The notes beneath the pieces were generated by a model. That model was not told the origin of the DNA. It did no database searches and saw only the letters and a list, made by a program, of their open reading frames with translations. From contig NC_092348.1 of NCBI RefSeq assembly GCF_963676685.1, positions 86,862,001-86,926,000 on the forward strand: DNA of 64,000 nt, written 5' to 3'. Within the stretch, counting starts at the first letter, position 1; the number at the start of each line of letters is the position of its first letter. This DNA is from Mytilus edulis (Eukaryota). Position numbers and translations under genes: made by a program. Below, in pieces: positions 1 through 15,200 of the stretch.

Positions 1-379
1 GTGATTTTAAAAATGGACATAAATGAACAATAAGAACTGTTTTATAGAGCTGGTGTGATGAGAAAAGAAAGATGTAGATTTGACCTGAAATAAATTATTA
101 GAAAGGACAATTTTTTTATTGAATTTTATGATCAGAATTTTGGGATTATTTCATGAGGAGACTGACATTTTTCACCATCTTCCGGGGTCCATCAATTTGC
201 GAAAAAAGTAATCTCACTTGCCACCCCGAAAATTTAACCAGACATGTATAAATGTATCAGCTTCGATATGAGCCATCATACATGTTCAAGTAAACGATAT
301 GGACTGAGCAACGGAGGAAAACGTTACCATTACGGCCTATGGAGAATTAATTGTAAATGTATACCCAAATGCTGACGCA

Positions 380-2059
380 ATGTCAAGGAATCCATGTAAG
401 TCATGTAAACATCAAGAGGATTTAAATCAAGCTGAAAACGATAATGATACGGAGAAAAGTGAAAAACCTGTAGAATGCCATTCAAATTTAGAAAAACAAG
501 AAGAAACAGTAAAACACTTTGCTACACCCCTCACGGAAGCAGATGAAACAGCAGATATCACTGAAATTACAGGGCTAATTCCAGGAAATATCCGAGCTGT
601 AACAAGGAGTGAACTCAAGGAGCAGCAGAATGAAATGAAAGTCAATGAGGCACTTTTAGGAGGTTGGGAACCATCAGAAATAAGACAACAGCAATTAGAA
701 GATGACAATATTGGGAAAGTATTTGCAGCATTTGAAAGCGGATCTCAGAAACCACCATGGGAAAGTATTTCTAGTGGAACATCAGCATTGAAAACTCTTT
801 GGGGACAATGGGACAGATTAGAAATGCATGGAGGAGTTTTATACAGAAGGTTTGAGACAAACATTGGTCAAACAGCCCGAAAACAAATGATTGTTCCTAA
901 GAGTCGAACACAAGATCTATTACACCATTTTCATGACGTACCATCAGCTGCTCATTTAGGCGTAGACAAGACACTGGAAAAGCTCAAGAACGGATTCTAT
1001 TGGCCTAACATGAAGGAATATGTTCAAGCATATTGCCGTTCATGCGACAGTTGTTTTGCAAGAAAACCCAAGAAAGAATCAACTAAAGCACCTTTGGGTA
1101 CATATGTCTCAGGAGAACCAATGGAAAGAGTAGCATTAGACATTTTTGGACCACTGCCGTTAACAAAACGAAACAATAAGTACATCTTAGTCATCTCAGA
1201 TCTATTTACAAAATGGACAGAGGCTATAGCCTTACCAAATCAGGAAAGTTCAACAATTTGTACTGCATTTATTGACCATTTCGTAACAAAATTTGGAGCC
1301 CCTCTACAACTACACTCAGATCAAGGGAGAAACTTTCAAGCCGATATTTTCCAGAGAATGTGCAACCTACTAGGCATTCATAAAACCAGAACTACGAGTT
1401 TCAGACCACAATCCAACGGTGGTGTGGAACGTTTTAATAGAACACTTGCTTCTATGTTATCGATGTACTGTAAACAAAAACAAGATCAATGGGACCAGTA
1501 TCTACAACAGGTGATGATGGCATACAGATCTTCCGTACATGCATCTACTTCCAAGACACCAAATTCTATGCTCTTTGGAAGGGAGGTAACTTTACCGCTG
1601 CAGGCTGTGATCCCACAGCCAGATATTGAAATTCAAGAAAACCGGTCGCCAGATGACTATGTGGCACACCTACAAAATAAATTAAAAGAAAATCATGCAT
1701 TTGCAAGGAAAGCACTCAAAAAGGTCTCTATATATCAGAAAAAGAGATATGATCTTAACGCCAAGAAAAGAATCTTTAAAAGGGGGGAAGCTGTCTGGAT
1801 CTACGACCCAATAAGGAAAAAGGGAGTATGCTCAAAACTCACACCTAAATGGAAAGGACCATTTATAATTGAAAAGAGAATAGATGATGTTACTTACCGA
1901 GTAAAGAGAAGCTTGAGGCAGCCGTCGACTGTATATCATGTGGATCGTTTAACACTGTATCAAGGGAGGAATGTACCATCGTGGGCAAGCAGATTTCGAA
2001 GAATGATGGATTTAGAGGAAGCAAATAACGACCAGCAATTGGATAAGCCAGTTGGCTAA
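380..2059 (+). CDS. pol: Gypsy pol C-terminal fragment: integrase
   Basis: HHCC zinc domain (HDVPSAAH...CRSC), DDE core (ALDIFGP, HSDQGRNF, SNGGVERFNRT), GPY/F motif (KWKGPF). The ATG at 380 is internal to NADAMSR and is not a real start. Confidence 0.95.
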   Translation: MSRNPCKSCKHQEDLNQAENDNDTEKSEKPVECHSNLEKQEETVKHFATPLTEADETADITEITGLIPGNIRAVTRSELKEQQNEMKVNEALLGGWEPSEIRQQQLEDDNIGKVFAAFESGSQKPPWESISSGTSALKTLWGQWDRLEMHGGVLYRRFETNIGQTARKQMIVPKSRTQDLLHHFHDVPSAAHLGVDKTLEKLKNGFYWPNMKEYVQAYCRSCDSCFARKPKKESTKAPLGTYVSGEPMERVALDIFGPLPLTKRNNKYILVISDLFTKWTEAIALPNQESSTICTAFIDHFVTKFGAPLQLHSDQGRNFQADIFQRMCNLLGIHKTRTTSFRPQSNGGVERFNRTLASMLSMYCKQKQDQWDQYLQQVMMAYRSSVHASTSKTPNSMLFGREVTLPLQAVIPQPDIEIQENRSPDDYVAHLQNKLKENHAFARKALKKVSIYQKKRYDLNAKKRIFKRGEAVWIYDPIRKKGVCSKLTPKWKGPFIIEKRIDDVTYRVKRSLRQPSTVYHVDRLTLYQGRNVPSWASRFRRMMDLEEANNDQQLDKPVG

Positions 2060-2416
2060 ATGTTGGAGGAATATTAAAGGTCCTCAGCATTCTGTACCTG
2101 TTCATACTTTTATTTTTGGATATACTGCAGTATATATTTTTATGACAGATCTGTCGGAGAACGATTTGGGGGTGGTCTGATCAACCACTAGTCAAATCAT
2201 TGAGATATAGGATAGGGATCCTGGCTGACTAAGGAGGAGCCCAGTAGTCGAGTTTATTTTTGATATGAACAGTTATAGATATTTTTGGAGTTGTTTCGTT
2301 GGTGTTATTTGCATGGTTTTGAGTTGAACACATTTATAGAACGGGACGGGGGGAGGATTTTAACTTATTATATAAACAATACAGGGAATTAATGGCAGTA
2401 TTCCTTGTATTTCAGA

Positions 2417-3478
2417 ATGAGTTCAGTGGTATCGACAAAATGCTGGTTATGCCCGGAAACCTATGAAAAGAAAAAGGACCTGAAGAGCCATGCCATCTCC
2501 GAGCATTCGGTGTGCAGAGTTGTTTGTCCATGGTGTGTAGATAGTGAAAGGACGTTTGGCAGGATGTCGGAGCTGACCAAGCACAGTAAGAGAAAGCACA
2601 ATGATCTCACCATAGACCTCCTGGAGGGTGATTTCTTTACAGAGCCAAATGGATTTTGGTTAGCCAAGCGGCCAGATGATTATGTTAGAATTATAAAGCC
2701 TTCAGAATGGACGAGCACTATTGCCATCAGGACCAGGGCAGCACTGTTGGGATGGGTGGAAGCCACCAAGAAGGAGGGATCAGACAAACATAAGAAGTCA
2801 TGGGAAGAAGGATGGAAGAAAGCACTGGGTCATTCTGTTACAAGTGAGCAGCCCACCAGCTCTAGGAAACGGAAATACAGTCCATCCAGACCTCTAGTGG
2901 ACCTTCCTGAACTAGCAGTAGCCAGGATTGACCTATCATCTAAGGGGAACATAGGCTTTCTTAGAATGAAGGAGTCGTCAGCAGAAATATGGTTCAAGGT
3001 AGAAATGGTACATTGGGTCATGGAGGACTCCAGGGCAAAGGACAATTTGGTTAGGAGAATGAGCATTGCAAAGACAGACCATGAGCCACCACAAACTTGG
3101 GGAACAGAACTTAAGTTGTCTGAGTCAAAGCACACCTTGAATCAGGTAACCAAGGCGTTGGGAATTGGTGAGAGACATGTCAGGAAGCTGTTTAGGGGAA
3201 AGGTGACGTTTGAAACCAAGTCCAGGAAGAAGGCAGAGGAAACAACCAGGGAAGAAAGTAGTAAATCCGATATTGGAGAAGAGCCAGAGTACGAGATAAT
3301 GGACTCTATTGGAGAAGTAGACAACCTAGAAGTGATATTAGAAGAAAAGGAACAACCAGAAACAGCTAAAACCATCTCAACAACACAGGAACCATCAGAA
3401 AAAGTTGCAGATGTCCTACCAACAGCAGAAAAGAAAAAAACCAAGCAAGCCAGTACCAATTCAAGACAGCCCTCTTAA
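2417..3478 (+). CDS. Retrotransposon accessory ORF, N-terminal part: two C2H2 zinc fingers plus acidic low-complexity region
   Basis: CWLC-x12-H-x4-H and CPWC...H-x4-H. The ATG at 2417 follows a canonical acceptor ttccttgtatttcag. Purine-rich like pol. Confidence 0.75.
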   Translation: MSSVVSTKCWLCPETYEKKKDLKSHAISEHSVCRVVCPWCVDSERTFGRMSELTKHSKRKHNDLTIDLLEGDFFTEPNGFWLAKRPDDYVRIIKPSEWTSTIAIRTRAALLGWVEATKKEGSDKHKKSWEEGWKKALGHSVTSEQPTSSRKRKYSPSRPLVDLPELAVARIDLSSKGNIGFLRMKESSAEIWFKVEMVHWVMEDSRAKDNLVRRMSIAKTDHEPPQTWGTELKLSESKHTLNQVTKALGIGERHVRKLFRGKVTFETKSRKKAEETTREESSKSDIGEEPEYEIMDSIGEVDNLEVILEEKEQPETAKTISTTQEPSEKVADVLPTAEKKKTKQASTNSRQPS

Positions 3479-4154
3479 AAAACTAGACAACAAAGAGAAT
3501 GATACATATTTACCAATGCTGAGTGAGGACGAGGAGGAAGAGGAGGAGGAAGACAAGGCAACATCAGAGAGGTCAGATGAACGAATCATAATGGTGAGCC
3601 ATAAGGAAGTGTTTGACATTGACACTGACGAAGAAGAAACTACCAATATATCACTTAGGGAGAGGGCGGAGAAGCTATTAAAGGCAGGAGGGATGCCCCT
3701 ATTTCCACCAGGGAGGAGACAATGGGCCGGAGAAAGGATGCAGGTGTCGAGTAAACCAACACCAATGTTCTGGCCGCCCAAGGAATGGAGGAAATTGACA
3801 GCGGATCAGAAGCTGACAGCCTGGAGGTTCGCTGCCATGACCTTGGCAAGGGAGCATGGAGTCGACACGGTCAAGGAAGAGAGAGACGTACTTGACAAGT
3901 ATGCCATGCTTGCCTTGCCAGGTACTGCGTTACCTAATCAACCTGGAGAAGACTTGATTATAAAGGCTCGTTTGGCCAATTACCACTTGTTGAAGGATAT
4001 CTGTCTTGGTAAACTGGAAGGAATTGAAGCTTTGGAATTAATAGATATGCTGGAAGCCGCAACCCGATCAAAACCACAAAATGACTTAGTTAAATTATTA
4101 TGTAATGTACCTCTGAGATTGTCAGAAGATGTTAAGAAGGATAAATCGCATTAA
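3405..4154 (+). CDS. Retrotransposon accessory ORF, C-terminal part (probably the same gene as 2417-3478, split by a +1 frameshift)
   Basis: Removing one A from the A7 run at 3434-3440 fuses the frames (AEKKK-PSKPVPIQDSP). Poly-E tract, then a Trp/Pro-rich globular-looking domain (MPLFPPGRRQW...WPPKEW...YAMLALPGT). Confidence 0.7.
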   Translation: MQMSYQQQKRKKPSKPVPIQDSPLKKLDNKENDTYLPMLSEDEEEEEEEDKATSERSDERIIMVSHKEVFDIDTDEEETTNISLRERAEKLLKAGGMPLFPPGRRQWAGERMQVSSKPTPMFWPPKEWRKLTADQKLTAWRFAAMTLAREHGVDTVKEERDVLDKYAMLALPGTALPNQPGEDLIIKARLANYHLLKDICLGKLEGIEALELIDMLEAATRSKPQNDLVKLLCNVPLRLSEDVKKDKSH

Positions 4155-4340: not shown

Positions 4341-4352
4341 GGGTGGGGAAAG
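4341..4352 (+). other. Polypurine tract (PPT)
   Basis: gggtggggaaag directly before TGTTATA, preceded by a T-run. Confidence 0.8.
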
Positions 4353-5980
4353 TGTTATAAATGGGTATTGATAATAATCTCAAAGAAACAACACATTTTA
4401 TATTTCTAAATTTTATTGGGATCAATATCTGAAAACCTGAAAAATAATGGTCTTAGATGATTTTCATACACTAAGACAACTTTGGCAATCTCAATTTGGG
4501 GAGATCAAATTGCATATGTTTATAATAAGTACCAATTTTATCAGATAACATAACATTTAACATAACGTCTATCAACTTATCAAGTTGACATAGCGGTAAA
4601 ATTCAACTGTCAGTGAACAGGCACTTCGATCACGATTTTCACGGGTCTACATTAAATTCACACTTTCAGGGGATAATGGGTTTATAAAACATGTTTGTCG
4701 TTACCTATTCATTCAGTCTCAGTGTTATTTGACACATCCTTTGGGTAGCTTTCCCTTAAATTCCATCGTAGCGAGTGCTTGTTTACGTATATTGGAAGTT
4801 GCCATTCCAACGAATGGTCACTTCCGGGTAACGGTACTTCTTTATAAAGTTATAATAATACATAAAAGTATTATTAAGATATGATTAAATTACTTGCTGG
4901 CCTTCCTTTTACAGTGTAGGATATTTAATAATAGGAAATAATTACGTTAAGTACGTTTTTGTGTAGCGCCGTTAAGGAACTATTTTGTGATTTCAATGAC
5001 GTCATATAGTAACGTAGGTGATAAGGCTACGAGTATGGAATTTTAAGGTTTATATTTATTATGTCACTTATTTATTGGAATTAAAGGCAAACTTTCGCGA
5101 TTTTATGTATTTATAACGACATTTTGGGACATGAGCCAGAGTTTTCCTTGGTATTTCAAAGTTATAGTAGATTTTCAGTTCTGTGAGTCGCGGATGTATT
5201 TCACCGTCAAGTATAAATACGGCGTCGCACTAGCACTTTGGCATATCGTATCTGGCTATCAAGCAGAGCAGTACAATAAACCAAACAAACCCTTAAAGTC
5301 AAGCAAGCTATTTAGGTACAGGATGCATTTCGATATACAGCTATTTCACCTTAAGCTATGCGATAGCATTTCAAGCCTTTATTTATCTTTTTACATCTTT
5401 GGGAATATTTAACTAAAAGCTCACATAAGGACGTCTATAGGAACCAAATATCGCTTTTATAAATATTCCCGCTTAAGCAGGTCTTCAACAGGAAGTGGCT
5501 TCATATTAAGACAAGATGAGGAACCAGTTCAATGTTTACAATTTCTCATAGCAGTTTTTGGCAAATTACACAAATTATTAAAGATGTAAAGATACGATGT
5601 CCCACCACGTTGACAACTTTCTTATATCGTAGTTTAATGAAATACGTATATTTCATTCTCTCATTATTGTATTGATAGGATAAAGTCTTGTAAATCTGTA
5701 TTTATAAGTTATATCTGGGGTTCGGAAGGCCAGCATCTTACTATTACAATTTATGGTTATACTATGTTATTGCTGATATTTGCATGCGTTATTTATTGAG
5801 ATATACATGCCTACTGGACAAGAATAAAAGTCACTCTTTTACGCTGGATTCTTCATTTATATATGATTATGCTGGAGTCAACAAACTACACTCAAAACAA
5901 GACAAAGTAACGGAATACTATCAATAAGCAATCATACGGAATTAAAAGTACACTCGACCCCTACTCGCCCGCCTGTAACA
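4353..5980 (+). repeat. 3' LTR (~1.63 kb)
   Basis: Starts TGTTATA after the PPT and ends TGTAACA (6/7 inverted match). AATAAA at ~5823. The right end cannot be confirmed without the 5' LTR. Confidence 0.7.
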
Positions 5981-6102
5981 GTATTTATTAAATATTGTTC
6001 CAAGTTTTTAAACCTGGGCTATCTATAGTGGACTGTACTGGTTGTCTTGTGTTGTTGGATTGCTGACTTGTTTGTATGTACCAATAATCTGTTTCGTTTT
6101 AC

Positions 6103-6223
6103 CTTATAAAGACAAACATAGATGTATATGGATAGTTTACAGCACCAAATCCTGATAACAGAGCCATGATAGTCACACCTATAACACCTATTCTTCCTAT
6201 ACACTGCTCTATGTCAAATATTC
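6103..6223 (-). CDS. GPR89: GPR89 coding exon 6
   Basis: [44 protein letters not shown] flanked. Confidence 0.95.
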
Positions 6224-9200
6224 CTGTCAATAAAATGAATGTCATAGTAAATTCACCATCACAATCATTAATAAATATTTTCAATTATTAACATGTTTCT
6301 TAATTTTCAATTATTAACATGTTTCTTAATTTTCAATTATTAACATGTTTCTTACTTTTCTGGGAAAGAGAATATAATTACATTAAAGGTAACAAAGAAG
6401 CTTTTGATGTGATGTTTTAAAATATAACTTGGAATTTTTATATCTGGTAAGATATGGTTTTGTTGGAAATTCCTGTGATGATTATATGAACTGCATTTTT
6501 TTTTTAACAAATTTATAGTACACAAAAAAAAGTGACATTTTTTTAGATGTTTAAATTTGGTAAACCTAACTAGAAAGTATATTCAAAAAGTCAAACTTGA
6601 AACTTTGTCAACCAATATAACGAATGAAAAACAACTGTCATATTCCAGACTTGGTATAAACATTACCAATTTCCTATCAAAGCAGACCTACCTTGTTTAG
6701 GACTAAGAATAGGAAATGGATCCCCAATCTTCCAAAAGAAATAAGTAGCTATACACCAAACAGCAAATGTCAATAATACTCTGACATGTTGTTTCTGAGG
6801 TACTGAAAAAAGAAATAATAATGTGAGTCAGGTAAATCATTTTTTCCCCTCCTGTCCCTAAAAGCATACATTCTTTATATTTAAAAAAAATCTCTAAATA
6901 TTTTATCCAAATGTACAGGGCTGTTTTGAATTTCGTAACATTAGCACAGTGGTAAAATATTATTGACATATCACATTTATGTGTGTGCTAAAAATTGAAG
7001 AAAATTGTGTACTTTGAAAAGAAGAAATATTCATTAGTTCATCTTCTGAGGAATTATTCTACATGCAGAACAAACCAATACAGATGAACAGACAAAGATC
7101 ATATTGTATCTCTATTCCAGTATTTCTCGATACATATATTCCAATATATTCCAATAGAAAAAAAGAAAAAAATCTTTCTGATCCTAACAACTTGTGCAAA
7201 TTTACAAGACTAGTCAATATACATGTAGGCTCTCCTGGCTAACTCATGTACTTGATATCATTTAGTTTAATTTTTATTTTAGTTTGCATACTGTAATTTA
7301 TGATATGTGCCTCTCTCTTGCTTTCATATAACTTTTGTATGTCTGTACATATACATTATGTAATATTTATACTGCAACTAGTTGTTTTATTTTCTTAAGC
7401 TATATTTGTGCAATGTCAATTTCATCATGGAACACTTTTTCTACAAACAGAGGTTCATCAAGGGGTGAGAATACATTTGAAATCAAATTTACAATTTAAA
7501 TAGCTATCAATGTGTTAATTTAAGTTGCAGTAGAAAAACAATATTAGGCCAATGTCAGAAAAATATATACTTTTTTGTAATTGGTACAAAACTGGGGAAG
7601 TGCTAGTTAGAACCTTGCCCTTTCCTGGTTTCTCAGCCCCATACAAAAAAGTTTAGATGTTTCTGTATTGACCTAATATTGTGTATGTATTGTGTGTATC
7701 TCTATACCAATGTATTTTGGTTTGTTGAGAAATAATGATATAAATAATAGATTTTCTAATAGTCCATATTCTAATTTTGAAGGTTTTTTTTCCGGGAACC
7801 CAACTTTTTATCAACCATGTTATCAATCAAATGTGTAAGCAATTTTACTTACCAAATTTCAAATTACAAATTATGAAATAAGCAATATAGAATGGTAACA
7901 CTACAATCAACACTGATAATATGGCATATAGCCCTAGTTTCCAATGGAAATATCTGGAGCTGAAATACACAAAACAATCTGTAATTTTTTCTATTAAAAC
8001 AGGAAATATATAAATTTCAATTCAAAATTTTACCAATTTGCCATCTTCAGCAGTTTCTGAGCAAAGGCTTCATTTACAAAGAAAAGATCTTAATCTTTGA
8101 TTTGATTAAAAATTAAAATTTATGAAACCCAAAATCTTTCAGCAATATTATAACTGAGCTTCTGTTGCTTCTCAATCTACTTCTCAAAATGATGCATTCT
8201 AAACTTTCTTAAGATTCAAGAAGTCTGATATCAACAGCATTGTTTCAAAGATAAAGTATAAAAATGTTTTTCTAAAACCTATCTAATGCATAGTTTTACA
8301 CAAAGATCTGTTAATCAAATTCTCATTCAGGTAAATAAATTATTTTATTGTGATGTGTATATTGTGGTAAGTGGTAACAATGGGGCATCAAAGGTTTAGA
8401 ATTGCGAAAAATAGTTACCTCCCCTGCATATGTATCTACCCCTATTAGTCAATTACTACTGAAAATTATTATTAATTTATTAAGTAGACTTTAAAATTTA
8501 GCTGTACAGATGGTTATGTATCATGTGTATGTACTCAATACATTTCTTGGATTTATTTATCACTAATCTGACCTTACATTTAGTCTGATGTGTACTATAT
8601 TTTAAACTTTGCAAGGTACATGTATATATCATTTTTACAACATTCCTACACCCTACCCTGAAATAAGAGTAACAGGACCAACAATAGATTTGTTTTTTTT
8701 GTCAAGACTTACTCTGCATCAAGTACTCCAAGAATTTCAAATATGATCAGTTCAAACATGGTACAGGATAATGAAAATGTCACTGAAAACACTAACAGTA
8801 CAACAGAGTGGTGGACCTGAAACACACAATAATAGGCTTACAATAAGTTCACATGGTACAAGATAATGAAAATTTCACTGAAAACACTAACAGTACAACA
8901 GACGATGGACCTGAAACAGAAAATAATAAGCTTACAATAATGTAACATGGTACAGGACAACAAAAATGTCACAGAAAACAGTAACAGCACAACAGACGAT
9001 GGACCTGAAACACACAATAATAGGCTTACAATAAGTTCTTGGTTCTCTGGTTATAGGTTGTATCATTTGCAATCATACCATATCTTCACATATATATAAT
9101 AGCAATACAATTTGATTTATAGATCATATGTCATATTGTCAAAAAGATACTAAATGAAAGATTAGGCTTTATAAGAGTAATTCAAAGCCTTTAAGGGCAT

Positions 9201-12200
9201 ATAAACCAAAATGAAGCTACTCATTGCACTTATTTAATGTTGGGGTGACAACATCTTTTCTCATGTCAGTGTATGTGGTGACAAATAGGCAATAATGTTA
9301 GTGTATGTGGTGACAAATATGCAGTAATGTCAATGTATGTGGTGACAAATAGGAAAATTCAAATAGGCAAATTTGACAATGTGTGTGGTGAAAAATATGC
9401 AATAATGTTAGTGTATGTGGTGACAAATAGGCAATAATGTCAATGTGATGAATGGTGACAATATCTGCAATTATCTCAATGTGTGTGGTGACAACAAGTC
9501 AATAATGTCCATGTATGTGGTGACAAATAGGCAATTATGTAAATGTTTGTGGTGACAATATCTGCAATTATGTTAATGTATGTGGTGACAATAAGGCAAT
9601 TATGTCAAAGGGTGTGTGGTGACAAATAGGCAATTATGTTAGTGTGTGTGGTGACAAATAAGCAATTATATCAATGAGTGTGTTGACAATATCTGCAATT
9701 ATGTCAATGTGTGTGGTGACAAATAGGCAATTATGTCAATGTGTGTGTAGTAGCAAATAGGCAATTATGTCAATCGGTGTGTGGTGACAAATAGGCAATT
9801 ATGTCAATGTGTGTGTGGTGACAAAAAGGCAATTATGTCAATATGTGTGTGGTGACAAATAGGCAATTAGGTCAATATGTGTGGTGACAATATCTGCAAT
9901 TATGTTAATGTGTGTGGTGACAAATAGACAATTATGTCAATGTCTGTGTGGTGACAAATAGCCAATTATGTCAATGTTTGTGTGGTGACAAATAGGCAAT
10001 TATGTCAATGTGTGTGGTTACAAATAGGCAATTATGTCAATGTGTGTGGTGACAAATAGCCAATTATTCTAATGTGTGTGGTGACAATATCTGCAATTAT
10101 GTAAATGTGTGTGATGACAAATAGGCAATTATGTCAATGTCTGTGTGGTGACAAATAGGCAATTATTTCAATGTGTGTGTAGTGGCAAATATGCAATTAT
10201 GTCAATGTGTGAATGGTGACAAATATGCAATTATGTCAATCAGTGTGTTGACATAATAGGTACTTATGTCAATGTGTGTGATGGCAGCATAGACAATAAT
10301 GTCAAAGTGTGTGGTGACTTAATATGCAATTATGTCAATGCAAGTGGTGACACATCTGCACTTATGTAAATGTTTATGGTGACAACATAGGCACTTGTGT
10401 CAGGATTGTGGTGAGAACATCTGCACTTATGTCAATGTTTGTGGTGACAATATCTGTACTTATGTCAGGGTGTGTGGTGGCAACATAGGCACTTTTGTCA
10501 GTGTTTGTGGTGACAATATCAGCACTTATGTCATTGTGTGTGGTGACAACATCTGTACTAACGTCAATGTGTGTGGTGACAATATATGTACTTATGTCAA
10601 TTTGTGTGGTGACAATATCTTCACTTATGTCAATGTGTGTGGTGACAACATCTGTACTAATGTCAATATATGCGGTGACAACATCTGTACTAATGTCAAT
10701 GTATGTGGTGACAATATATGTACTTATGTCAATGTGTGTGGTGACAATATCTTCACTTATGTCAATGTGTGTGGTGACAATATCTGTACTAATATCAATG
10801 TGTGTGGTGACAATATATGTACTTGTGTCAATGTGGGTGGTGACAAAATCTGCAATTATGTCAATGTGTGTGGTGACAACATCTGTACTAATGTCAATGT
10901 GTGTAGTGACAACATCTGCACTTATGTCAATGTGTGTGGTGACAACATCTGTACTAATGTTAATGTGTGTGGTGACAACATCTATACTAATGTCAATTAG
11001 TGTGGCGACAACATCTGTACTAATGTCAATGTGTGTGGTGACAACATCTGTACTAATGTCAATGTATGTGGTGACAATATATGTACTTATGTCAATGTGT
11101 GTGGTGACAATATCTTCACTTATGTCAATGTTTGTGGTGACAATATCTGTACTTATGTCAGGGTGTGTGGTGGCAACATAGGCACTTTTGTCAGTGTTTG
11201 TGGTGACAATATCAGCACTTATGTCATTGTGTGTGGTGACAACATCTGTACTAACGTCAATGTGTGTGGTGACAATATATGTACTTATGTCAATGTGTGT
11301 GGTGACAATATCTTCACTTATGTCAATGTGTGTGGTGACAACATCTGAACTAATGTCAATGTGTGTGGTGACAACATCTGTACTAATGTCAATGTATGTG
11401 GTGACAATATATGTAATTATGTCAATGTGTGTGGTGACAATATCTTCACTTATGTCAATGTGTGTGGTGACAACATCTGTACTAATGTCAATGTGTGTGG
11501 TGACAATATATGTACTTATGTCAATGTGGGTGGTGACAACATCTGCAATTATGTCAATGTGTGTGGTGACAACATCTGTACTAATGTCAATGTGTGTAGT
11601 GACAAAATCTGCACTTATGTCAATGTGTGTGGTGACAACATCTGTACTAATGTTAATGTGTGTGGTGACAAGATCTATACTAATGTCAATTAGTGTGGCG
11701 ACAACATCTGTACTAATGTCAATGTGTGTGTCGACAACATCTGTACTTATGTCAATGTGTGTGGTAACAACATCTGTACTAATGTCAATGTGTGTAGTGA
11801 CAACATCTGCATTTATGTCAATGTGTGTGGTGACAACATCTGCACTTATGTCAATGTTTGTGGTGACAATATCTTCACTTATGTCAATGTGTGTGGTGAC
11901 AACATCTGTACTAATGTCAATGTGTGTAGTGACAATATCTGCATTTATGTCAATGTGTGTGGTGACAACATCTGCACTTATGTCAATGTTTGTGGTGACA
12001 ATATCTTCACTTATGTCAATGTGTGTGGTGACAACATCTGTACTAATGTCAATGTGTGTGGTGACAACATCTGTACTAATGTCAATGTGTGTGGTGACAA
12101 CATCTGTACTTCAATGTGTGTGGTGACAACATCTGTACTTCAATGTGTGTGGTGACAACATCTGTACTAATGTCAATATGTGTAGTGACAACATCTGCAT

Positions 12201-15200
12201 TTATGTCAATGTGTGTGGTGACAACATCTGCACTTATGTCAATGTTTGTGGTGACAAGATAGGCACTTATGTCAGGGTTTGTGGTGACAATATCTGCAAT
12301 TATGTCAGAATTTGTGGTGACAATATCTGTAATTATGTAAATATGTGTGGTGACAACATAGGCACTTATGTCAATGCTTGTGGTAACAATATCAACACTA
12401 CTCTCAATGTATATGTTGACAACATAGGCAGTTATGTCAATATATTTGACAACATCTGCATTTGTGTTGTTTGAGTTCATTCTAACATAAGTGCTTGTGA
12501 TGACAACACTTGTACTCATGTCAACATCTAGACAGCATTAATGTCAATGTTTGAGGTGACAACATATGTACTTATGTCAAGATATGTGCCAGGTGACAAT
12601 AATTGCCATTGTGTTGGTTGAGGTTATCTGTTTTCCCAGAAACTTCAATAACACCCAAATTTTATAATGATTGGTGCATGCAATCAAACACTACTGAAAT
12701 ATTAATAATGGCAGAAAGAAAACAGAAAGTTAAAAGATTGTTTCTGAAATAGCACTGCATTAAATCATATCTTATTCTTACCTCATAATCCTTGAACAAT
12801 TGCTTTAGAAAGAAAACCCAGCCTCCACCAAAAAATAAAACCTAAAGAAAAAACACATAATATTCAAAACATAAGTTCAACATAAATGTATGCAACTGTA
12901 TAATATTCTTCATTTAAGTAACCCTTACCATGTGGGGATTGTAAGTAAATGACTCCCTCTGATTGCAGGTCCAGGTCAATAACCAGACTAAGCCAAAAAT
13001 CAGGCATTTCAAATGATTTGTTTTTACATTCTCGAATTTTTGGTTGAAATAACCTCCTTAAGACTGTCATACCCAGATCAGTGTCATTCAGATCTAAACA
13101 ATATTGATGGTAAACCATTACATGAGACTACTGAGTTAAAATACATCTATAGGCAAACTTTGGTATTTAAGAGGACACGATAAAGAATGAAAAATCAAAA
13201 TTGATATTCTTGCACCAGATGACTAACTTAGGAGCAGCAATTTTAAAATGTCTCTTTGACATATAGACCCTTGTCACATCTCCTTTATTGCATAAAATGC
13301 ATGTATGATAATGACAATATTACCATAATCTTTATCGAATAAAATTACTTTAAAGAATATTTGTTGGACAACACACTAAAGGTCTTTCAATGCTATGAGT
13401 ATGAAGAGCATTTTGTAATAGAATTCTTTCTTGTGATTCTTACCACATCTTCTAATTTACATATTTATATATACAATGTATCTTAATTGGCCTTTTATTT
13501 TTTTTATTCGAGCCTCACTAATGTGTCTTTAATAAGATCTTGAAAATAAAATGAGCATTTGTGGTTAAAAAAAATTAAGTCAGGTATCTACATATCTGAT
13601 GAGTTTATTGGTCAGTGGTCGGTACCTCAAATGACTGAAGAACACTGTTATTATCAGAATAACACTTGTAGTGAATGAATAACACTTGAAATCTAAAAAT
13701 AGCACATATTAGTGACTTTAAAACGTTGATTTTTAAATAATAGTATATTAATTACCAGGCACAATATATACTCAAGACAAACAAATATATTTCACAGCAC
13801 AGGATAAACACTTGACTATACCAATGACAGTCACATATAAAATGTAGAGTTAATGTTAATGAGCAAATATAGCGTCAAGCCATTAAAAATAATAAATATA
13901 ATCATCCAAACAGATTGAATAAACATATGAGCTAGCCGCAGTATAAACAAGCACATCTTATAAATAAGTACATAGAATACAATAAAATTCATAACTAACA
14001 CAGTTGTATGTGGCGGGTGGGAGGGTAAATAATTTCAATGATAAATTTCAAATGTACCGCGAATCCCAAAACAAAGAAATATATAAGAGCGTCCTGTATC
14101 CAGGTAACAAAGTAACCAATCAAAATAAGGAATACTCGGAACAATTTCTTCCGAGTAAATGTAAACAGTGATTCACGTGGTAATTATCCATTTTTATAAA
14201 ATCAAAAATTACACATAAAGGTTTTTATAACTCAGAAATTATATATAAAAAGCAGGTAAGTTCATAAAGATCGTTATAAATATAGTGTTTACTCCAACAT
14301 GGCGACCAAGGATACCGCATTTATTCAATGCCACATGGTCGCCATGTTGGATGTACAAAAATGTACACACTTATTACACTATATTTATAATGATCTTTAA
14401 AAACTTACCTACTTGCTGTAAATCATTTTTAAGTCAATGTTTAAAAGTCACCAATGTGTGCTCATATTAAATTTGAAGTGTTATTCAGTCATTACAAGTG
14501 TGATTCAGATAAGAACGGTGTTATTCGGTCATTCATGTTACCCATCAGTGGTTGTCATCTTTAAAGTCTATTCAATTACACCTTATCGGCCTTTTCAGCT
14601 ACTGTTAGCTTAAAATTGGTTAAATCTTACTCTAATTCCTCAAAATATCCCTTTGCATCGGAACTAAACACATTTAATTTTTTAAAACAGTTATTGGCAT
14701 GACACGGGTTATGTTCTTCTCATATATTTTATGATAGTATGATACTGAACCCCTAACGGGAGGGATTGTGCCTGATATTCATATGATGAAGACATAATCT
14801 TTCAATCAGTTTAATTGAGGTCTGGAGCTGGCATGGCAGTTAACTGCTAGTAGTCTGTTGTTATTTATGTATTTTTGTCATTTTATTTATTTTCTTTTGT
14901 TACATCTTTTGACATCGGACTCAGACTTCTCTTGAACTGAATTTTAATGTGCGTATTGTTATGCATTTACTTTTCTTCATTGGCTAGAGGTATAGGGGGA
15001 GGGTTGAGATCTCATAAACATGTTTAACCCCGTCGCAATTTTGCGCCTGTCCCAAGTCAGGAGCCTCTGGCCTTTGTTAGTCTTGTATGATTTTTAATTT
15101 TAGTTCCTTGTGTATAATTCGGAGTTTAGTATGACGTCCATTATCACTGTACTAGTATATATATTTTAGGGGCCAGCTGAAGACACCTACGGATGTTGGA

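Follow-up and report, generated by a model that had tools for sequence, protein, structure and literature searches.

Gypsy elements are usually viewed as plain gag-pol(-env) units that rely wholly on host factors. Third genes of LTR elements are already known as a kind: these include env, the enzymes of rotifer elements, the ORFs of plant Retand elements and CERV of the C. elegans element Cer1. The closest tested precedent for the mussel gene reported here (ORF3) is CERV, which an initial annotation of this locus did not mention. CERV is described as a spliced nuclear protein of about 517 aa, with three folded domains, flexible linkers and a zinc-binding Cys loop, that is needed for RNA export and not for transcription (PMC10309623, available text). 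Like ORF3, it is an accessory protein other than env that an animal Gypsy element encodes; both measure 500-600 aa and have a zinc-binding part. A spliced mRNA has been shown for CERV and is predicted for ORF3. Compared by description, CERV has exons in common with gag, H, M and G-protein-like domains and a C4 loop in M, whereas ORF3 is located 3' of pol and combines a pair of C2H2 fingers with two domains that lack a match.

Other third genes share the location of ORF3. Errantivirus/Ty3-gypsy env genes, as presented in the available text of PMC13524379, also come after pol and ahead of the polypurine tract (PPT), with a splice acceptor directly before the gene. The ORF3s of bdelloid rotifer LTR elements encode GDSL esterase, DEDDy exonuclease, coiled-coil or transmembrane (TM) proteins and are, as in the mussel, varied env-position third genes of invertebrate LTR elements (PMC5408684). 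No zinc-finger protein is among those given in the available part of that work, whereas in the mussel the finger pair is constant and the C-terminal module varies. In plants, the extra ORFs of Retand/Grande elements (TRP28) are likewise lineage-wide, located between pol and the 3' LTR and proposed to encode a DNA-binding regulator. Unlike ORF3, they are antisense, found only in plants and carry a different domain, and the text available presents their function as a proposal only (PMC11963269).

Foamy-virus Tas, other retroviral regulators and VANC are element-encoded regulators of their own sequences and are used here, by analogy, as a functional model. They differ from ORF3 in that they come from retroviruses or DNA transposons, are not C2H2 proteins and show no homology that we could see. 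Tas binds DNA, Tat and Rev are retroviral regulators, and VANC is a regulator in plant VANDAL transposons.

The mussel elements very likely belong among the mollusc Gypsy families (MolGy1-16, C-clade) that were classed by RT/RNase H (PMC6238403). The main text of that survey does not mention ORFs, zinc fingers or splicing, and the available portions of PMC12440569, PMC8220671, PMC6338049, PMC2774666 and PMC7828637 contain nothing on this gene. We found no description of it in the literature; Repbase entries and supplements may already note the ORF. The family of zinc-finger accessory genes of bivalve Gypsy elements is apparently undescribed.

The element and its third gene

The window analyzed is a 64,000-nucleotide stretch of Mytilus edulis DNA, to which positions refer unless a genomic locus is given. 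It opens (1..365, no strand assigned) with the end of an insertion that splits an LTR element in its RNase H region and generated a 6-bp duplication. This insertion (27.7 kb, G000:C5:86834625-86862365) largely consists of near-identical 2205-bp tandem units, and no long ORF was found within the unit. Although split, the interrupted element is full length: its 5' half is located 33 kb upstream of the part present in the window, with the 5' LTR, gag and the first part of pol from G000:C5:86829461 onward. On the plus strand of the window, the end of the RNase H and the integrase (H2C2, rve and p58_C/SH3 in Pfam) make up the 3' part of pol (366..2059). They are followed by ORF3 (2417..4154), the PPT (4341..4352) and a TG...CA 3' LTR of 1628 bp (4353..5980) with 99.88% identity to the 5' LTR; the target-site duplication GTAT lies directly after the LTR end at 5980. 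The TG...CA LTRs, target-site duplication, PBS and PPT, and the order gag then pol (protease-RT-RNase H-integrase according to Pfam order on pol), are those of a Ty3/Gypsy element. Its gag has no Pfam match, yet it ends with a C-terminal CCHC knuckle. The PBS of this family (family A) is presumably of tRNA-Leu type. About 120 bp beyond the LTR, an exon encoding a Golgi pH regulator domain (GPHR_N) is found on the minus strand (6102-6284), and the element probably sits antisense in an intron of this gene. The window also contains an array of about 60-80 copies of a 33-bp tandem repeat (about 9260-12500).

The initial annotation described a ~580-codon ORF with one frameshift between pol and the PPT, and this description holds: ORF3 is broken in this copy, and a sister copy with an unbroken frame encodes 578 aa. 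Its first open stretch covers 353 codons and stops at 3478, while the other frame carries on to 4154, and the frame break is located in an A-run near 3430. According to ORF lists, a single open frame spans the A-run position in 8 of 9 sister copies; a stricter motif test of the frame confirmed this in only 4 of the 9. These sister copies come from a DNA search of the 1.37-Gb genome, which gave 48 matches including nine further near-complete copies. In most of the nine, the paired LTRs are 97-99.9% identical, the PBS is the same and 4-bp duplications are present. ORF3 is open end to end in 2 of 10 near-complete family-A copies (578 and 591 aa). One of these copies, G000:C1:43392357-43403156, is intact, with LTRs 99.94% identical, a 4-bp duplication, a PBS and open genes for gag (375 aa), pol (1312 codons) and ORF3 (578 aa). 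Furthermore, pol lies at most 1.5 kb upstream of ORF3 in 26 of the 30 loci found with the N-terminal domain, and the other four, without a near pol, appear decayed. The order gag-pol-ORF3 was also found in both metagenome contigs with enough upstream length. ORF3 is therefore a true gene of the element, located between pol and the PPT and encoded by full-length copies as had been proposed. A nested element or a lone captured gene was also considered and is contradicted by the selection acting on ORF3 (see below) and by the linkage with pol.

Two separate insertions (G000:C1:4983211-4997248 and C13:65098233-65106067) lack the same 2.6 kb of pol, lost at a short repeated sequence. They keep gag and ORF3, both genes being open in the C1 insertion, and constitute a non-autonomous subfamily. 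In one copy, a 5.8-kb insertion located directly after ORF3 carries a 1331-codon ORF without Pfam match (L040:2501-6493, minus) and is probably a DNA transposon.

The predicted protein

AlphaFold predicts three folded parts (residues about 5-139, 165-265 and 410-570) with disordered linkers between them. Domain 1 (2417..2836, plus strand as for all features below) would consist of two tandem C2H2 fingers (2441..2599; 2441-2506 and 2525-2599) and a helical Trp-rich extension. The fingers are modelled as beta-beta-alpha with a pLDDT of about 85. Those of this copy fall below the Pfam cut-off (E 0.004 and 0.02); all eight Cys/His zinc ligands are almost invariant among relatives, and the family profile retrieves C2H2 pairs among solved structures at E 2e-7, in line with the two fingers announced by the initial annotation. 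The best sequence and fold matches of the pair are DNA-binding pairs such as ZBTB17 (E 2e-7) and CTCF. In finger 2, position -1 of the helix is Arg in 44 of 57 sequences and position +3 is Asp/Glu in 58 of 59. Arg at -1 with an acidic residue at +3 is the base-contacting pattern of Zif268 finger 1.

Domain 2 (2903..3214), a folded middle domain that had not been noticed previously, is predicted to combine a beta-sheet with helices. Domain 3 (3645..4127), at the C-terminus, is the most conserved; it is basic, with near-invariant Arg/Trp, and was modelled alone with a pLDDT of 91 and a pTM of 0.85. Sequence and fold searches gave no convincing match for domains 2 and 3, and a Pfam scan of 67 family members matched zinc-finger families alone. 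Two other features had been put forward. The RKRK basic motif is indeed present (2864..2875) but is not kept across the family, so the argument for a nuclear localization signal is weak. The low-complexity linker between domains 2 and 3 (3215..3644) is acidic here, as reported, but this form is not conserved: its length and make-up vary among relatives, most having a Pro/Ser/Thr-rich or Lys/Glu-rich linker. Since the maximum hydropathy over 19 residues is 0.95 (exceeding 1.8 in only 3 of 67 relatives), the protein has no TM helix or signal-like stretch. An env identity was considered and rejected, in agreement with the initial annotation: the protein has no hydrophobic signal/TM stretch and no fusogen match, and it carries zinc fingers instead.

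Purifying selection

Variants common to several copies were taken as reflecting active lineages. Among 14 family-A rows, ORF3 shows 110 synonymous and 50 non-synonymous shared variants (dN/dS 0.12, p ~1e-37), and dN/dS is 0.06 in domain 1, 0.08 in domain 2, 0.13 in domain 3 and 0.20 in the linker. For variants confined to one copy, the ratio is 0.37. The other genes of the same element have values of 0.05 (gag) and 0.09 (pol), while ORF3 reaches 0.22 in family C and 0.34 in family E, where variants are few. ORF3 is thus under purifying selection, as is expected of the element-encoded protein that had been proposed.

In copies C13a, C13b and C1c, the silent-site divergence of ORF3 from the reference copy is 2.5-5 times that of pol. 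Since dS of ORF3 exceeds that of pol in the same family-A copies (0.33 vs 0.07; 0.35 vs 0.09), an exchange of the ORF3 region between subfamilies is suggested.

Distribution among families and bivalves

A homologous ORF3 is found at the same place in four further families of this genome (pol about 52% identical), and in all five families (A-E) the three-domain protein follows pol. The 19 best RT matches (150 of 2473 candidates scored) all fall in these families, which form one clade with 100/100 support in a midpoint-rooted tree of 22 rows from this genome. Beyond this genome, a search of 1.84 billion representatives with the domain 3 profile recovered 356 clusters (E<=0.001). Domain 1 is also present in 63 of the 74 proteins of at least 400 aa among the domain 3 matches listed. 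The organisms named among 30 looked-up proteins are Potamilus, Dreissena, Pecten, Mercenaria and Mactra, all the named hosts being bivalves. The ORF3 family is old and widespread in bivalves.

Three side observations concern these families. In P0094, P0095 and P0196 (Pecten maximus LOC117321387 and a relative), a kinase-like protein carries domain 3 at its end as a fusion, possibly through capture by a host gene or through an artefact of the gene models. The CpG observed/expected ratio is about 1.0 in the LTRs of A, B and D (3 of 5 families), compared with 0.54 for host DNA and 0.35-0.57 for the genes of the element. Moreover, a hairpin and short motifs located just after the PBS look similar by eye in families A-E (e.g. 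L081:7620-7830, minus) and may be a packaging or protein-binding signal.

Neighbouring lineages were sampled through 20 hand-picked loci of the RT list (150 of 2473 candidates scored). One is a family-C copy and one has no pol match, which leaves 18 loci whose pol is about 40-45% identical. These elements are young, with LTRs 99-100% identical. After pol, 13 of the 18 carry an ORF that opens with C2H2-type fingers, and two loci carry two such ORFs. Zinc-finger third genes are hence common in this Gypsy branch in this mussel genome and are not a one-off. The C-terminal parts differ between lineages, and the one lineage compared by profile is alike in the fingers only. The L199 lineage ends in a BTB_2 (KCTD-type) domain (Pfam E 3e-12). 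It includes L199 (G000:C1:69280430-69281806, minus), L203 and L209-L211, that is several families with dozens of matches in the genome, and pol lies upstream of the finger-plus-BTB ORF in 5 of 6 loci checked. At L182 (G000:C8:~47397000) and L196 (C7:~53469000), two finger-pair ORFs follow pol in tandem, each with its own acceptor-like stretch.

No zinc-finger ORF was found after pol in 5 of the 18 loci. Since all five have near-identical LTRs, the third gene is dispensable in some lineages. These loci are confined to one part of the tree (rows from this genome, no outgroup), next to carriers, a position that would fit gene loss.

Splice signals and expression

The ATG of ORF3 at 2417 is preceded by TTCCTTGTATTTCAG, whose AG (2414-2415) ends one base ahead of the ATG, where the initial annotation had placed an acceptor. 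This acceptor-like site, a pyrimidine tract followed by CAG (2401..2415, plus), is found 1-2 bases before the ATG in all five families. The spacers between pol and ORF3 (390-1007 bp) are otherwise without evident likeness among the families, yet the CAG is kept. A strict acceptor test was passed by 13 of 17 zinc-finger ORFs, against 45 of 2543 background ATGs (1.8%) in the window. Further support for splicing comes from L199 and L193, in which the finger exon has no ATG ahead of finger 1. In each of them, both LTRs contain a GCC-ATG followed by a donor-like GT whose phase is the one needed (0 and 2); an in-phase ATG-donor was thus found in the LTRs of both lineages that need one. The LTR of the present copy has candidate signals on the plus strand (5212..5317): a TATA box at 5212, a poly(A) signal at 5275 and a splice donor GT at 5316. 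Four of the five families have a donor-like site spaced comparably from the TATA box, that of A scoring weakly, whereas no such site was found in the LTR of family D. Donor-like LTR sites are also present in families without the third gene.

These signals point to a spliced RNA as the likely mRNA of ORF3. No joint to the acceptor was found in any of four contig sets, which are RNA by guess only and whose contigs show presence and not absence, so the splice junction that had been foreseen was not recovered; unspliced contigs run across the acceptor in three of the four sets. An unlikely alternative, which concerns expression only, is that an internal promoter in the pol-ORF3 spacer drives ORF3, with or without a short intron, instead of splicing from the LTR. 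The foamy-virus tas gene has an internal promoter (PMC7828637, available text). Consistent with this, a TATA-like word that might act as a promoter lies 48 bases ahead of the ATG (2369..2376, plus) and recurs at about -48 in family C, the spacers reach 390-1007 bp with donor-like sites in those of C and E, and the contig sets show no LTR junction. However, B, D and E have no such TATA, and the in-phase ATG-donor of L199 and L193 points to the LTR.

Discussion

The reading that we tentatively favour is that this conserved ORF3 of bivalve Gypsy elements, likely made from a spliced RNA, likely encodes a nuclear DNA-binding regulator that would switch on or protect the element's own transcription. 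The 5' LTR would drive synthesis of a full-length RNA, which encodes gag-pol; joining a donor shortly beyond the TATA/poly(A) region of the LTR to the acceptor before the ATG would produce a short, spliced ORF3 RNA. The target of the finger pair would be a short DNA site that probably contains CG and is most simply placed in the long LTR of the element itself, and domains 2 and 3 may bring in transcription or chromatin factors of the host. Sister lineages retain the finger pair and swap the tail for a BTB or helical one, whose function in this scheme is presumed. Since ORF3 is selected, is not a membrane protein and combines a conserved DNA-type finger pair with exchangeable tails, a regulator of its own transcription or chromatin is the simplest interpretation. 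The close-set fingers match DNA-binding pairs, and the CpG ratio of about 1.0 in the LTRs of three of the five families is also in favour of it. A motif search of the LTRs revealed no binding site, three seven-mers being equal to the shuffle maximum of 3 and no shared or repeated motif standing clearly above shuffles. Against this reading, resemblance to DNA-binding fingers is a generic trait of C2H2 proteins, two fingers can bind RNA or protein, and the sole tested precedent found, CERV, is dispensable for transcription and acts in RNA export.

This precedent underlies the strongest rival, which we consider doubtful. As for CERV or HIV Rev, an early product of the spliced RNA would bind the unspliced genomic RNA (or the transcription site) and free its nuclear exit, providing an early-to-late switch. 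ORF3 is similar to CERV in size and layout (three predicted folded domains and flexible linkers), and since the acceptor is conserved, the element must export an intron-holding RNA, the problem that CERV solves in Cer1. The leader hairpin motif, alike by eye in all five families, and the basic domain 3 with its Arg/Trp residues would also suit such a role. However, no domain is evidently common to both proteins and no G-protein fold occurs among the matches listed; moreover, the finger helix pattern suits DNA and the swapping of C-terminal modules between sister lineages fits a modular regulator better. Weaker still, and improbable in our view, is an adaptor for counter-defence that would bind a host silencing or restriction factor and remove or block it, the fingers binding chromatin or protein. 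BTB_2-type domains often serve as Cullin-3 adaptors, and both the finger-BTB_2 fusion of a sister lineage and the region exchange suggested by the excess silent divergence of ORF3 over pol in the same copies would agree with this role. It is opposed by strong purifying selection in all three domains, with no sign of rapid protein change, and domains 2 and 3 have no known adaptor fold.

Steering of integration is very improbable. The narrow 4-bp target of the insertions (NTAT/ATAC type) and fingers able to bind DNA could be taken to mean that ORF3 tethers the integration complex to chosen chromatin sites, but a separate protein made from a spliced RNA needs a route into the particle, for which no signal was seen, and it is normally the integrase that sets short target preferences. 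Lastly, it is scarcely conceivable that ORF3 is a passenger, i.e. a captured host gene or a nested element carried without function. Such an origin could be suspected from the 8 of 10 near-complete family-A copies in which the gene is broken and from the kinase-like fusions of scallop gene models; pol is likewise broken in most copies, neither inner repeats nor a second duplication were seen, and the dN/dS of 0.12 (p about 1e-37) and the identical place of the gene in five families of one fully supported clade (100/100) both stand against it.

If the regulator reading is extended to the neighbouring lineages, a large branch of animal Gypsy elements might encode modular zinc-finger transcription factors, with a constant two-finger DNA-binding head, an LTR-spliced RNA and exchangeable effector modules (two domains of no known fold, BTB, helical tails); we advance this proposal with more reserve. 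If true, such factors would let the elements respond to host silencing with proteins of their own, and they would supply bivalve genomes with new zinc-finger and domain fusions. In the literature found, CERV alone is a self-encoded regulator of animal Gypsy elements. Here, within one mussel genome, a large group of young elements (LTRs mostly 99-100% identical) typically carries a zinc-finger third gene, and one lineage of this gene has relatives across four bivalve groups. ORF3 adds two domains without fold match, and many gene models labelled 'C2H2 domain-containing' in bivalve annotations are explained as retrotransposon genes. These elements offer clear tests of how retrotransposons in animals govern their own expression or escape silencing.
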